DNA from: Octopus sinensis
Lineage: Eukaryota
DNA length: 64,000 nt
Reading direction: 5' to 3'
NCBI RefSeq assembly: GCF_006345805.1
Contig: NC_043006.1
Span: forward strand, 93,682,001 to 93,746,000
Shown here piece after piece: positions 4,941-59,810 of this stretch. The notes beneath the pieces were generated by a model, which made no database searches, was not told the DNA's origin, and was given only the letters and a program-made list of their open reading frames with translations. The position numbers and the translations under genes were made by a program. The number at the start of each line of letters is the position of its first letter. Position 1 is the stretch's first letter.

Positions 4941-5078
4941 GGGATAGTTTACGAAAAAAACAAAAGACGAAGACAGGTGGTGTACAAAACAAACAGATGT
5001 ATAACGCTCAGGAATAGAAAAAGTCTTTTACGTTTCGAGCCTACGCTCTTCTACAGAAAGGGACACAGAAAAAAACAA
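4941..5078 (-). mobile_element. Short hammerhead-bearing dispersed element, family H1
   Basis: Matches copies at 31265, 52545, 53945 and 59605. Minus strand 5025-5060 reads CUUU-CUGUAGA-A-GAGC-GUAG-GCUC-GAAA-CG-UA-AAAG. Confidence 0.75.
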
Positions 5079-5079
5079 A

Positions 5080-5410
5080 CGGTACTCCGTCGGTTAAGAC
5101 GACGAGGGTCCCAGTTGATACGGTCAACGGAACAGCCTGCTCATGAAATTAACGTGCAAGTAAGTGGATGAGCACGTCACAGACACATGTACCCTAAACG
5201 TAGTTCTCATGGATATTCAGCGTGACACAGAATGTGACAAGATTGGCCCCCTTTGAAATACAGGTACTACTCATTTTCCCCAGCTGAGTGGACTGGAGCA
5301 ACGGGAAATAAAGTGTCTTACTCAAGGACGCAAGGCATCGCCGGGAATTGAACTCACGACCTTAAGAGCGTGAGCCGAATGCCCTAACCACTAAGCCACG
5401 TCTCTTCAAC
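5080..5410 (-). mobile_element. SINE family D-related (tRNA-derived head)
   Basis: Minus strand TGAAGAGACGTGGCTTAGTGGTTAGG (A box), GAGTTCAATTCCC (B box), core CTTGAGTAAGACACTTTATTTCCCGTTGCTCCAGTCCACTCAGCTG shared with 48365. Confidence 0.8.
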
Positions 5411-5469
5411 GTATATACGTGTGTGTGTGTATGTATTTATATGTAGGTGTGTATTTTTGTGTTTGTGTT

Positions 5470-5662
5470 TGGCTCGCACCACCGCTTCACAACAGGTGTT
5501 GCTTTGTTTGCATCCTGGAAATTAGTGGTTCGTCAAACGAAAAACGAGAAACAAAGTAGCAGATTTTAAAATACTTGGGTTGACTCTTTCGACTAAACAC
5601 TTCGACGTTGTGCTCCAGTATGGCCGTGGCCGAATAGCTGAAACAAGTAAAAGCATAAAAGA
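5470..5662 (+). mobile_element. SINE family A, degenerate 3' half
   Basis: GTGCTCCAGTATGGCC...GCTGAAACAAGTAAAAG tail. Confidence 0.65.
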
Positions 5663-6060
5663 TAACAAGAAACCAACTAAACGAAGTCTTTTAAGAAACA
5701 AGAAAACGATGCGAAGCCACAACTGAAATTCTTTCACGAAACTTCCATAACAAGCATAAAGCGTCGTAAAAGCGGTCACTAGAGTTGTTCGTCAATCCGA
5801 TTGCTTATATTATCGAATGTCTGTGTTTTTTTCTTTTTCGTAAGGTGTGGTTCGAGCGGGAATTGGCTGCCATTTCGAGCACAGGTGGAGCTACCACGTA
5901 GTGACCCCCACCCCTCGTTGACTGGCATTGTTTTCAGTGGACGTTATCCTACAGATTCTCAATCAAAATATTAAACTGTATCGGTCCGGTGAATCTTTGA
6001 GGGGGCCACGAATGTTATATACTTTGACCCTTCTTCCTGACTAAAACTTCAGCAGTAGCG

Positions 6061-6185
6061 ACACACACACGCACACACACACACACACACACACACACAC
6101 ACACACACACACACACACACACACACACACGCACACACACACACACACACACACACGCACACACATACACACACACACACACACA
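6061..6185. repeat. (CA)n microsatellite
   Basis: Direct inspection. Confidence 0.95.
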
Positions 6186-6984
6186 AGCATTAATACAAAC
6201 ATCTACCACAGCAATACCCATCCATCCCAGTGACTATCACGTCGTTTCACAATGATTTATCTCGCTCATCAGTATACAATCACACGTGACGTTTCCTCAC
6301 CCTTTTCTCTCTCTCTCTCTCTCTCTCTCTCTCTCTCTCTCTATCTATCTATCTCTATCTATCTCTCTCTCTCTCTCTCTCTGTTGTGTGCTTTTGTTGT
6401 CTTTTTACTCTTCCTGTTATCACGTGCTATAAAATAAAACGAAATAGAATTACGACTACTCTCGTAAAATCTCTTCTGGTTCTTTCTACATATGCAACCA
6501 CCTTCGACCGCGCCGCTACCATCTCCACCACCACCACCACCCCGTGACCACCACCACACCATGACCACCACTTTCGCTTATACAACAACTAACCAACACG
6601 ATCGAGATCACTACTATCATCGGGAGAACCACCACTATTAACCGTCACCATCATCATCGTCATCAACATCATCCTCATCATTATCATCATCATCGTCGTC
6701 GTCACTATGATCATCATCATCATCATCACCATCTCTAACAATAAAACCACAACCGACTCTACCACCACCGACTCTACCACCACCACTACGACCAAAACTA
6801 CTCCCACAAACGTCATCACCATCATCATCGTCATCATTACCATCGTAGTCGTCGTCATCATCATCACCGCCACCATCAGCATCATCATCACTACAATATC
6901 CAACATCTCCATCACAACACCAGTAGTAGCAGTAGTAGCAGCAACAGCTATTCCTAATCTCACATCGACTCAAGACATCTTTAT

Positions 6985-7185
6985 CTCATGTTTTGCTTGT
7001 TTGAGTCTAATGACTGCGGCTATGCTGGGGCATCGCCTTGACCAACTTTTAGTTGAACGAATTACTCCTAGTACTTATTTTTTGAAGTCTGTACTTATTT
7101 TATTGGTTTCTTTTGCCGAACTGCTAGGCTGCGGGGAATAAACACACCAATATCGGTTATCAAGTAGTGGTGGGACACACTCACA
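6985..7185 (-). mobile_element. SINE family A, 3' half
   Basis: Reverse complement of the tail and the CTAGTACTTATT...TTTTGCCGAAC block. Confidence 0.75.
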
Positions 7186-57539: not shown

Positions 57540-57716
57540 CACCAGCAATTTCGGGAGTGCGAGTATTCGATTACAGTACTCACTGTAATTTTATCGACCC
57601 CGGAAGGATGAAAGGCAAAGTCAACCTTAGCGGAATTTGAACTCAGAATATAAAGATGAACGAAATACCTCTAAGTTTTTCGCCCAGCGTGCTAACGATT
57701 CCGCCAGCTCGCCGCC
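57540..57716 (-). mobile_element. SINE family B
   Basis: TTTATCGACCCCGGAAGGATGAAAGGCAAAGTC...GCTAACGATTCCGCCAGCTCGCCGCC. Confidence 0.85.
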
Positions 57717-58099
57717 CTTAGGTTCCGATGGTAGTGACAGCTGATGTGCTTTATTTTACTTGGTTGAGTCCAATGGCTGCAACGAGAGATGAAATCAATG
57801 CATACACGCATGCACACACACACATATGCATATACATACTCACACGCATACACACATATTCATACACACACACATAAATATATACATATAGACAGATATA
57901 TGTATATAATACACACATATATATATGTTATATATGTATATATATATGTATATTATGTATATATATATATGTATATAATACACACACACACACACACACA
58001 CACATATATATATATATATATATATATATATATATATATATATATATATATATATATATATATATATATATATATATATATATATATATATGTAAGCCT

Positions 58100-58370
58100 C
58101 TTTCTTCAGTCGCCTCTGTTTCATCTATTCCGCGAGGCGACTGAAGAAGGGGAATTTTCCTTGTATTGTATGTCCTGTACTCTATTTTTTCGTTGTTTAA
58201 GAAAAATGTCCATTTCCTTGGTTTTGTGTTTATGTTTTCGTTTCTCATTGTGTTCGACGTTTTTTTTTTTGGTGTCCTGTACCCATATATGCATGTATAT
58301 ATACATGTAGAGGTAGGTACGTACATATATGTATGTATATATGCATATGTTTTATTTATTAATTTACACA
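58100..58370 (+). repeat. Dispersed repeat (shared with 35040-35270) with a 5' fold-back inversion
   Basis: TTCTTCAGTCGCCTC...GAGGCGACTGAAGAA, perfect 15-bp arms. Confidence 0.8.
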
Positions 58371-58844
58371 TATATATATATATATATATATATATATATC
58401 TACAATCCCTGACATCACCTCTCTTCCTCTACCGCCACCTCCACCACCACAACCATGTATTCCGCCGCCTAAAATCTCTTCGCTTTCTCTTTCTTATGTC
58501 AATTACTGCGTGTCGCTCCCTTTCTCTCGCCCCCTCCACTTCAGTCACGTGTACCACCGTGTCACTGTAGCAACAGGGCAACAGTTAACTTGACCTCTGC
58601 ACACGTGCCCACCTGACCCCGAACAGAGCGCCAAAACAATACTTGTCAACTCACCTTCCCCTCCTCTCGCCACCCCTTATTATGCAACTAACTCGTCCCC
58701 TTCTCTCACCCCCAACACCCTTCACTCTTGTAGTCCTCCTCTTCCTCCCTATTTCCCCCTCCTATCTTTCGTTATTTCATTCCTACTCCTTCACCTCTTT
58801 CATTCCTTCTTACCTATTTTTTCTTTTGGTTTATTCTATTATTG

Positions 58845-59257
58845 TTTTACTTGTTTCAGTCATGTGACTGCAGCCATGCTGGAGCACCGCCTTTAGTCGT
58901 GCAAATCGATCCCAGGACTTATTCTTTGTAAGCCTACTACTTATTCTATCGGTCTCTTTTGCCGAACCGCTGAGTTTACAGGGCGTAAACACCCCAGCAT
59001 CGGTTGTCAAGCGATGCTGGTTGCGCACACACACTCACACAAACACACACATACAAACAAACACACGCACACACACACAAACACACACACATATACGATG
59101 GCTTCTTTTATCTCCATGTACCAAATCCACTCACAATGCTTTGGTCGGCCCGAGACTATAGTAGAAGATACTTGCCCAAGGTGTCACGCAGTTGGACTGA
59201 ACCCGGAACCATGTGGTTGGTAAGCAAGCTACTTACCACACAGCCACTCCTGCGCCT
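58845..59257 (-). mobile_element. SINE family A, full length
   Basis: Reverse complement of the family consensus with an internal (CA)n. Confidence 0.9.
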
Positions 59258-59272
59258 ATTTACCTTTATTTA

Positions 59273-59492
59273 CAGGGTGACCCAAGAGCAGGTTTGCAGT
59301 TATTCAACTACATATTTCGCATTCATATATTAACAGTGTAGATCTTAATTATAAAAAGAAAATGAATCTATTATTTAATTTTGTCAAACTCCGTTTTCAG
59401 TTTGTAAGATAGAAATCTAAACGTAATAAAACGCTTTACAAGAATTTAAAGGACCTACGTGATAACTGTTAACCTACTTTTGGGTCACCCTA
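59273..59492. mobile_element. Tc1/mariner-type MITE
   Basis: TA-CAGGGTGACCCAAGAGCAGGTTTGCAGTTAT ... ATAACTGTTAACCTACTTTTGGGTCACCCTA-TA, ~31-bp imperfect TIRs. Confidence 0.8.
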
Positions 59493-59604
59493 TATATCTA
59501 TATATATATATATATATATATATATATATATATATATATATATATATATATATATATATATATATATATGTGTGTGTGTGTGGTGTGTGTGTGTGTGTGT
59601 GTTG

Positions 59605-59810
59605 TTGAAATTTACAGAAAAACAAAAGACGAAGACAGGCCTATAAGGTGTATAAACAAGAAGCTGGTGTGTTAGTTTGACGCTCGGGAAGAGAGAAAGT
59701 TTTTTTACATTTCGAGCCTACGTTCTTCAACAGAAAGTAACACGAGGAAATAAATAGGGAGACAATAAAAGAAAAATTGTGGAATAGCGGTCAATTATGG
59801 CGACTGATAT
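59605..59810 (-). mobile_element. Hammerhead-bearing element, family H1 (diverged)
   Basis: 59702-59737 minus strand: CUUU-CUGUUGA-A-GAAC-GUAG-GCUC-GAAA-UG-UA-AAAA. Confidence 0.7.

Follow-up and report, generated by a model that had tools for sequence, protein, structure and literature searches.

A 64,000-nucleotide stretch of the genome of Octopus sinensis (contig NC_043006.1, positions 93,682,001 to 93,746,000; hereafter the window) contains several copies of a repeat, termed H1, with a minimal hammerhead motif in which the A at position 6 of the core is replaced by U (A6U). We find that H1 is almost certainly the terminal repeat, i.e. the pseudo-long-terminal-repeat (pLTR), of a Penelope-like retrotransposon (PLE) in the same genome, that its solo copies are likely short products of reverse transcription, and that the hammerhead is probably a ribozyme of dampened activity on which selection still acts, as predicted from its conservation and modelled folds. 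To this explanation as a whole we assign a probability of roughly 0.8. The element itself is of an ordinary retrotransposon kind, abundant and recently active, and the system is a known one; new here is that A6U is fixed family-wide, with a natural A6 sister family and retrozyme-like offshoots. A first-pass annotation of the window had proposed an independent non-autonomous family and possibly an undescribed system, a proposal that is not supported, as H1 ends an autonomous element and varies in step with it, lineage by lineage.

H1 ends an autonomous retrotransposon

Upstream sequence is common to several of 30 H1 loci that were fetched, and walking 5' from H1 leads through a CA-rich and CT-rich 3' untranslated region (UTR) into codons for a reverse transcriptase (RT) and a GIY-YIG endonuclease (EN), without a break. 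Approached from the other side, loci picked by their RT have H1 at the expected downstream distance in 12 of 20 cases, with H1 also directly before the 5' UTR in L107 and L117, and loci of the young lineage picked by their EN have the exact U6/U7/U17 motif downstream in 26 of 30. In 7 of 20 longer stretches the motif occurs twice, once at each end, with a spacing of about 4.5 kb and identical junction letters, and the 3' end of H1 precedes the 5' UTR start in 27 of 28 distinct young loci. The element measures 4.2-4.5 kb and consists of H1, a fixed TA-rich junction, the 5' UTR, a single RT-linker-GIY-YIG frame, the 3' UTR, H1 and a (TA)n run. Direct pLTRs, i.e. partial tandem copies, are found in L107 and L278 (792 nt at 96%). 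The youngest lineage (U6, U7, U17) is 97-100% alike, its EN region being 99% identical among the top 40 matches and its 5' UTR start 100%. In L278, positions 2707-5733 form an unbroken frame of 1009 codons, which matches RVT_1 above the cut-off (E 1.3e-7) and GIY-YIG below the Pfam cut-off (E 0.008).

What is known of EN-bearing PLEs recurs here, namely RT and GIY-YIG in one frame, direct pLTRs with a hammerhead motif inside them, mostly 5'-truncated inserts with a fixed 3' end, and inverted copies (L002, tail-to-tail). Two suggestions of the first-pass annotation are thereby borne out: that H1 might be a solo pLTR, as full-length copies carry it at both ends, and that it is moved by PLE machinery, as it is the terminal repeat of an element with RT and GIY-YIG. 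The inverted layout typical of PLE inserts, with H1 copies tail to tail or in close pairs about a single (TA)n run, was seen at L002, L066 and G000:C22:20120509-20120851. At four further loci (L033, L034, L035 and L039; G000:C12, 51.7-52.3 Mb) H1 has lost the hammerhead core through one deletion; the flanks they have in common point to one event spread by segmental duplication and not to a mobile lineage without ribozyme.

Judging by the motifs of its protein, the element very probably belongs to the Neptune clade. Between RT and EN lies the linker CSRPRCRTC (CX2-5CXXC), and the EN reads YCISCSLC..YIGQT..R..EH...H (CCHH); both the linker and the CCHH pattern are those of Neptune, and in a by-eye comparison they agree, as does the DKG motif, with the rows for Neptune in Fig. 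S2 of Craig 2021 (PMC8557442). Hydra (DKT, no CCHH) and Naiad (N-terminal EN, DKA, no canonical hammerhead) were ruled out, the protein having DKG, CCHH and a C-terminal EN. Neptune elements (Arkhipova 2006, as given in PMC8557442) share with the H1 element the single RT frame with C-terminal GIY-YIG, the zinc-finger-like linker, the CxxC and two His in the EN, pLTRs from partial tandems, inverted copies, a microsatellite bias and a hammerhead in the pLTR, whereas the A6U core, the long pyrimidine/CA-rich 3' UTR and the unit of 4.2-4.5 kb set the H1 element apart. Full-length relatives reach 55% identity; relatives at 41-57% identity are many, and the few named ones come from shark, snails, coral and sea urchin.

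A minimal hammerhead with U at position 6

The H1 motif reads CUUU-CUG-U-N-GA-A-GAGC-GUAG-GCUC-GAAA-CG-U-H-AAAG. Read directly from the window copies, position 6 is U in five out of five and position 7 varies (A, C, A, A and U), exactly as first annotated. The same annotation had all five copies share every part of the motif, which holds for copies 4941, 31265 and 53945; copy 52545 has decayed, with a stem I mismatch (AAUG) and the loop AUAG, as has copy 59605, with GAAC in stem II, UG in stem III and AAAA in stem I. Nor is the core non-canonical in every respect claimed. In the published consensus of minimal hammerheads (CUGANGAH ... GAAAN-palindrome-NUH; PMC4209133) the extra A and the CG stem III are standard, and only U6 deviates. 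Most features of the minimal PLE hammerhead are present in H1, i.e. stem I, an extra base after A9, stem II with G10.1-C11.1, GAAA, the palindromic 15.2-16.2 and UH, whereas the CUGANGA core with A6 is not (exact motifs: U6 11,935 versus A6 115), so that the H1 hammerhead is a variant and no canonical member of the group. Metazoan PLE hammerheads resemble it in being of type I, with a stem I of 4-5 bp, an extra nucleotide after A9, G10.1-C11.1 and a palindromic CG without loop 3, and in occurring mostly as single copies from truncated PLEs; they differ in that H1 has U6 and a short stem II of 4 bp (PMC4209133). All rows consulted in part 2 of Fig. S3 of that source have A6, and the core variant published there is U3-A8. 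A register in which the U is an insertion was rejected, since it breaks C3-G8.

No hammerhead family appeared in an Rfam scan of the window among the best 150 of 282 matches, all of them microsatellite noise, and none on 53945-54146. Minimum-energy folding compared with shuffles gave z values of 0.15 to 0.44 for four copies and -0.92 for copy 59605, which is no evidence either way because a minimal motif is expected to equal its shuffles.

Genome-wide counts of the exact 31-nt motif over the 2.72 Gb assembly gave the above 11,935 and 115 and none for the reversed-pattern controls, in keeping with the annotation of H1 as a high-copy family. Position 7 in the first 100 U6 rows is U in about 51, A in 22, C in 15 and G in 12 (counted by hand). 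The 20 A6 copies that were fetched nest inside the U6 lineages, some being near-identical to U6 copies, and are therefore scattered back-mutations; an ancestral A6 sub-family inside H1 was rejected, since A6 copies group with U6 copies lineage by lineage. To this we add a sample drawn independently of the motif, i.e. 160 copies (some of them segmental duplicates) obtained via the 3' flank or upstream DNA. The motif is covered by 145 of them, and at position 6 these show 137 U, one G, one C and no A, the other 6 having a gap, so that 137 of 139 letters are U.

A homologous sister family of pLTR-like repeats, one solo copy of which lies in the window, keeps the canonical A. Its exact motif occurs 2,681 times in the genome, and 98 among the first 100 rows have A6, which makes it likely that U6 is derived. 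No link of this family to an open reading frame (ORF) was found in 25 loci, a single match stemming from a neighbouring H1-type insert; in L199 and L322 a sister copy is joined directly to an H1 3' end. Other hammerhead-bearing repeats are also around. A third, with a 6-bp stem II and ACAC/GUGU as stem I, occurs at window positions 19003-19024 (minus strand), in L131 and in L153; it has a canonical A6 in the two loci and G6 in the window. L161:6075-6145 (minus strand) and L103 (oriented position 2648) hold further A6 minimal-hammerhead repeats that are distantly H1-like.

Conservation between lineages

The majority letters of seven H1 lineages were compared, using up to 25 copies each, motif-picked copies included, with representative 3' flanks that are 74-96% alike. 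The majority letter is common to all seven in 33 of 35 motif columns as against 69 of 111 flank columns (Fisher p 1.3e-4), so that an excess conservation of the motif is indeed found. The only motif columns that differ are position 7 (four letters) and position 17 (A or U, in line with the NUH rule; G is never the majority), whereas C3, G8 and G12 stay unchanged. As both positions are left free in hammerheads that work (consensus of Perreault 2011, PMC3088659), the fold, and with it the family-wide U6 core, appears to be under selection on this comparison of lineages. Within lineages, core positions decay at a flank-like pace, for which reason selection would be confined to the master copies; solo copies also show an excess of CpG changes. 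Contigs from four organisms, compared over 820 nt of the young 5' UTR, have 1, 1, 2 and 5 differing letters, with no other letter listed at position 6, although an unlisted row is no proof of identity; no circle-like joint is listed either, none of the sequences is on record as RNA, and contigs cannot reveal ends, strand or expression.

Neither an A6U hammerhead in a PLE nor the H1 family is described in the literature that we searched, Repbase and Dfam lying outside that search, and the motif is absent from the supplements searched, including that of Craig 2021 (PMC8557442). The repeat annotation of Octopus vulgaris lists 190 Penelope-like families, 31 of them recently active, and the word ribozyme is absent from the part of that report consulted (PMC13282606); the H1 family may well be present already in that repeat library.

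Insert ends and the origin of the solo copies

H1 inserts have a 3' end that is fixed and followed by (TA)n, in agreement with the TA targeting first annotated. Their 5' ends, mapped with (TA)n masking, are ragged. Of 60 motif-picked copies, 44 have their 5' end at most 80 nt ahead of the core, with a mode at 55-77 nt (25 copies), and 5 reach beyond 800 nt. The junction between H1 and the 5' UTR consists of the same few TA-rich letters copy after copy and is thus part of the copied template; we infer that it offers homology to the nicked (TA)n target. The proposed course of events would then be as follows. The nuclease would nick a (TA)n target, and UAUAUA after H1 in the RNA would pair with the nicked target and prime complementary DNA (cDNA). 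Most cDNAs would halt after some 200 nt, leaving a solo H1 inserted in (TA)n by the element's own RT-endonuclease; some would copy the whole unit and continue into a second H1, which becomes the 5' pLTR; and some would switch between two T-rich tracts, giving mini-units of 340-570 nt that can be copied as tandem arrays. Most templates would be copied uncut, or re-ligated.

The PLE PAc of Anolis shares with H1 insert 3' ends downstream of the hammerhead and an AT-rich target, and its priming inside the RNA of the pLTR-ORF junction is a likely parallel (PMC11167929). PAc, in contrast to H1, primes without homology and has a hammerhead that overlaps the start codon (PMC11167929), whereas in the H1 element TA homology is provided by the junction and the ATG follows about 600 nt later.

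How the mode of 200 nt arises can be read in two ways. Plain drop-off of RT at structure or TA microhomology, instead of run-off at an RNA 5' end, would fit the scatter of 5' ends over 6-116 nt, often at TA microhomology, and the similar length of second-pass 5' pLTRs in the A7 lineage (35-332 nt). Against it, only 2 of 22 second passes in the young lineage stop within 210 nt, compared with 5 of 9 first passes, so that the H1 sequence itself is no hard stop, and the ends of the sister family are nearly uniform, its 5' end being sharply fixed in most of 25 copies. We hold drop-off to be a real possibility, somewhat short of an even chance.

ORF-less mini-units and tandem arrays

Some loci combine the 5' UTR start directly with H1. 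In the A7 lineage, 20 of 30 loci with a 5' UTR start jump from UTR position 220-296 into H1, 5 run on toward the ORF and 5 stop, with the proviso that the mini-unit query favours copies spanning its 308 nt; among 28 distinct loci of the young lineage there are 5 mini-units, 22 that continue and 1 other deletion. In 3 of these 28, mini-units stand in tandem, ORF-less and with one hammerhead per unit, namely G000:C11519 (L326-L328; five hammerheads spaced 422-451 nt, one unit having a different junction), L332 (three units of 569 nt) and L335 (two units). Mini-unit junctions differ by locus and none occurs at more than two of the 58 loci sampled, so that the mini-units look like repeated births and not like one spreading family. 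The C11519 and L335 arrays start mid-unit. Small circles copied by a rolling mechanism would leave such arrays, although DNA duplication, repeated template jumps or an assembly error may also account for them.

The layout of the arrays is that of non-LTR retrozymes, i.e. short tandem repeats without an ORF and with one hammerhead per unit (PMC7229834), elements which Li, Clavereau and Pollet 2026 derive from pLTRs (10.64898/2026.07.22.740005). The differences are that the array units, at 450-570 nt, are slightly longer than those of non-LTR retrozymes (150-450 bp), that each array has its own junction and is known from DNA alone, that its hammerhead is a minimal A6U one and not a canonical type I, and that the window copies are solo monomers. 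What was annotated as retrozyme-like therefore applies to a minority of derived mini-copies and arrays and to none of the copies in the window, and in the 58 loci sampled the mini-units, with their locus-specific junctions, do not spread as a family of their own.

These data also bear on whether H1 could after all be a separate non-autonomous family, resembling retrozymes or short interspersed elements (SINEs), with a 200-nt transcript that amplifies itself by borrowing PLE proteins. In its favour, the majority of copies are short and their 5' ends have a mode, the sister family has its fixed 5' end, and ORF-less mini-units, three of them tandem, make up 20 of 30 and 5 of 28 loci with a 5' UTR start. 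However, the A7, G7 and young U7 lineages are each joined to their own ORF-bearing copies, solo copies decay alike at core and flank with the CpG excess, no mini-unit junction recurs widely, the loci read contain no head-to-tail arrays of H1 alone, and solo copies lack the piece of 5' UTR that is present in all arrays. We regard a separate family as very improbable, and H1 as the terminal repeat of the PLE.

Is the A6U ribozyme active?

The A6U change likely weakens cutting, according to fold models and known mutants. U6 would abolish a core contact and, in a closed fold, pair with A15.1, so that cutting would be slow and would need a partner copy or the element's protein. In the folding of natural pairs this U6-A15.1 pair is predicted and closes the core, with a probability of 0.98 in the young lineage versus 0.02 for a natural A6 copy; elsewhere it amounts to 0.56 (A7), 0.44 (C7) and 0.16 (G7). 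A precedent is the natural A6C hammerhead of phage Bcep176, which also has a pyrimidine for A6 in an otherwise canonical core, and in which the change lowers and does not abolish cleavage, the reaction being slow in Mg2+ and better in Mn2+ (PMC3088659, PMC7151607). H1 differs from it in having U and not C, in its approximately 12,000 exact copies in an animal retroelement and in its minimal, dimer-type scaffold, and it is known from sequence alone. We predict, with slightly better than even odds, measurable cleavage in some context.

Processing by the ribozyme, as first annotated, is not evident from the inserts, since their 3' ends lie about 95 nt beyond the predicted cut site and no clear pile-up of 5' ends is found there. 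Such a pile-up was sought in three ways, i.e. in 5' pLTRs, in truncations of the T lineage and in a control window, and was not established. Some 140 young copies end beside a TA run at a distance of up to 30 nt from the cut site, and about 17 of 43 listed ends of T-lineage copies truncated nearby lie within 2 nt of it (counted by hand). H1 resembles PAc, a Poseidon element, in this lack of a pile-up at the cut site; the PAc hammerhead cuts with the help of the protein, insertion in vitro does not require it, and no read ends fall at its site in the results consulted (PMC11167929).

A number of points count against our explanation and are gathered here. None of the 5' pLTRs starts at the cut site and 15 of 19 run through it, while the neighbouring control window proved equally dense in ends (56 versus 70 reverse-strand matches), with similar heaps at other A/T microhomology points. 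The 5' pLTRs range over 35-332 nt in the A7 lineage and from 120 to more than 1400 nt in the young lineage, where full-length copies mostly have 600-1200 nt; hence a single start at about -75 cannot explain all products, and templates of more than unit length, as known for PLEs, are needed. The comparison of lineages drew on motif-picked copies and motif-picked lineage representatives, loop II (GUAG) is likewise invariant, beyond what catalysis alone needs, and no compensatory stem change within H1 proves the fold. In a mutagenesis screen of a type III hammerhead, activity was low after single substitutions in the CUGA turn (Roberts 2023, PMC9901934), from which it follows that U6 may be close to dead. 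As to the element, the L278 frame lacks the N-terminal part, being cut off by one frameshift from its likely start, no wholly intact copy occurs among 20 longer stretches, and the clade assignment is motif-based.

Several of these points would suit a hammerhead that has been dead since A6U and is kept as a folded landmark, bound by the element's protein for packaging or priming: the low activity of CUGA-turn mutants, the predicted locking of core and palindrome in a closed helix by U6-U7 in the young lineage, the missing end pile-up, the invariant loop, and the finding that hammerhead mutants of PAc still insert in vitro. It is countered by the restriction of changes between lineages to the free positions 7 and 17, with C3, G8 and G12 kept, by a closed fold that the A7, C7 and G7 lineages show weakly or not at all, and by the tandem mini-arrays that start mid-unit, as circular RNAs would leave them; such RNAs usually arise by ribozyme cutting (PMC7229834). 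A dead landmark is thus possible, with a chance of little more than one in three on our assessment. At the other extreme, A6U might make an active, switch-like ribozyme, predicted to stay closed until a partner copy, Mn2+ or protein opens it, which would circularise mini-transcripts and repeatedly spawn retrozymes via template switches at T tracts; this we consider rather unlikely. A dampened but selected ribozyme, intermediate between the two, is what we favour.

H1 and other repeats in the window

With copy 53945 as query, BLAST and nhmmer find exactly six matches in the window, i.e. the five copies and the ribozyme-less piece near 47635, all where they had been annotated (Table 1); the BLAST E-values of 4e-58 to 4e-20 place the likeness far above chance. 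The annotated form of about 200 bp within (TA)n needs some adjustment. The (TA)n run is constant at the 3' end, whereas lengths range from 134 to 200 nt and the 5' context varies, copy 4941 meeting unique DNA and copy 59605 bordering (CA)n and then (TA)n. The absence of an ORF holds in the window, where tblastn gave one weak, unrelated RT match, and does not hold for the family, which has ORF-bearing full-length copies. Forty evenly spaced 10-kb stretches contain 3 copies, which points to a total of some tens of thousands; with 6 matches in 64 kb, the window is richer than average.

Table 1. Positions of H1 copies, their hammerhead motifs and a sister-family copy in the window
Feature	Position	Strand	Remarks
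Solo pLTR copy, A7 lineage	4941..5074	-	134 nt; 3' end (4941) adjoins (TA)n; 91% to L107 3' end
Minimal hammerhead, complete, U6/A7/A17	5025..5060	-	core from 5056
Solo pLTR copy, C7 lineage	31264..31461	+	flanked by (TA)n runs; 85% to L278 3' end
Minimal hammerhead, complete, U6/C7/A17	31330..31365	+	core from 31334
Solo copy of sister pLTR-like family (not H1)	42072..42277	+	canonical A6 hammerhead; 69% to L278 pLTR over 132 nt, E 3e-6
Ribozyme-less short 3' piece of pLTR	47631..47703	+	begins downstream of hammerhead
Solo pLTR copy, A7 lineage	52544..52699	+	156 nt
Minimal hammerhead, U6/A7, decayed	52575..52610	+	core from 52579; stem I mismatch, altered loop letter
Solo pLTR copy, A7 lineage	53945..54144	+	200 nt; starts at modal 5' end
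Minimal hammerhead, complete	54017..54052	+	numbering after published consensus
Copy 53945, stem I	54017-20 / 54049-52	+	
Copy 53945, core	54021-27	+	U6 at 54024; extra A at 54028
Copy 53945, stem II	54029-40	+	
Copy 53945, GAAA	54041-44	+	
Copy 53945, CG	54045-46	+	
Copy 53945, predicted cut	between 54048 and 54049	+	
Solo pLTR copy, old lineage	59605..59806	-	71-73% to other copies
Minimal hammerhead, U6/U7, decayed	59702..59737	-	core from 59733; three substitutions

A general repeat search of the window is dominated by microsatellites. A tandem satellite of 37 bp occupies 43291-44990, and dispersed repeats of two or more families, usually (TA)n-bordered and at 80-90% identity, lie at 1870-2295, 46814-48136, 58830-59269 and 60675-61016, and at 20746-21614, 29113-29306 and 62244-63950; we take these dispersed repeats to be SINE-like. 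Decayed RT-like fragments are present at 4266-4616 and about 52830-53540 (a weak tblastn match to the PLE RT, 27%, E 6e-4, and by eye a 3' end like that of a long interspersed element), and an imperfect inverted repeat of 200 nt at 52210-52409, which drew a noise match in Rfam, is possibly a miniature inverted-repeat transposable element.

Implications

PLE hammerheads are poor at cutting, and insertion in vitro does without them, which raises the question of their purpose. In the present case a lineage has altered a 'universal' core base, has retained the remaining motif in all of seven sub-lineages and has out-multiplied its A6 sister (11,935 versus 2,681 exact motifs). Because descriptors built on CUGANGA miss all U6 copies, the number of hammerheads in such genomes is underestimated. 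The natural U6/A6 pairs, together with a near-intact recent ORF, make the question of what the hammerhead does directly testable, and the mini-arrays offer genomic snapshots of how a pLTR is proposed to turn into a retrozyme.

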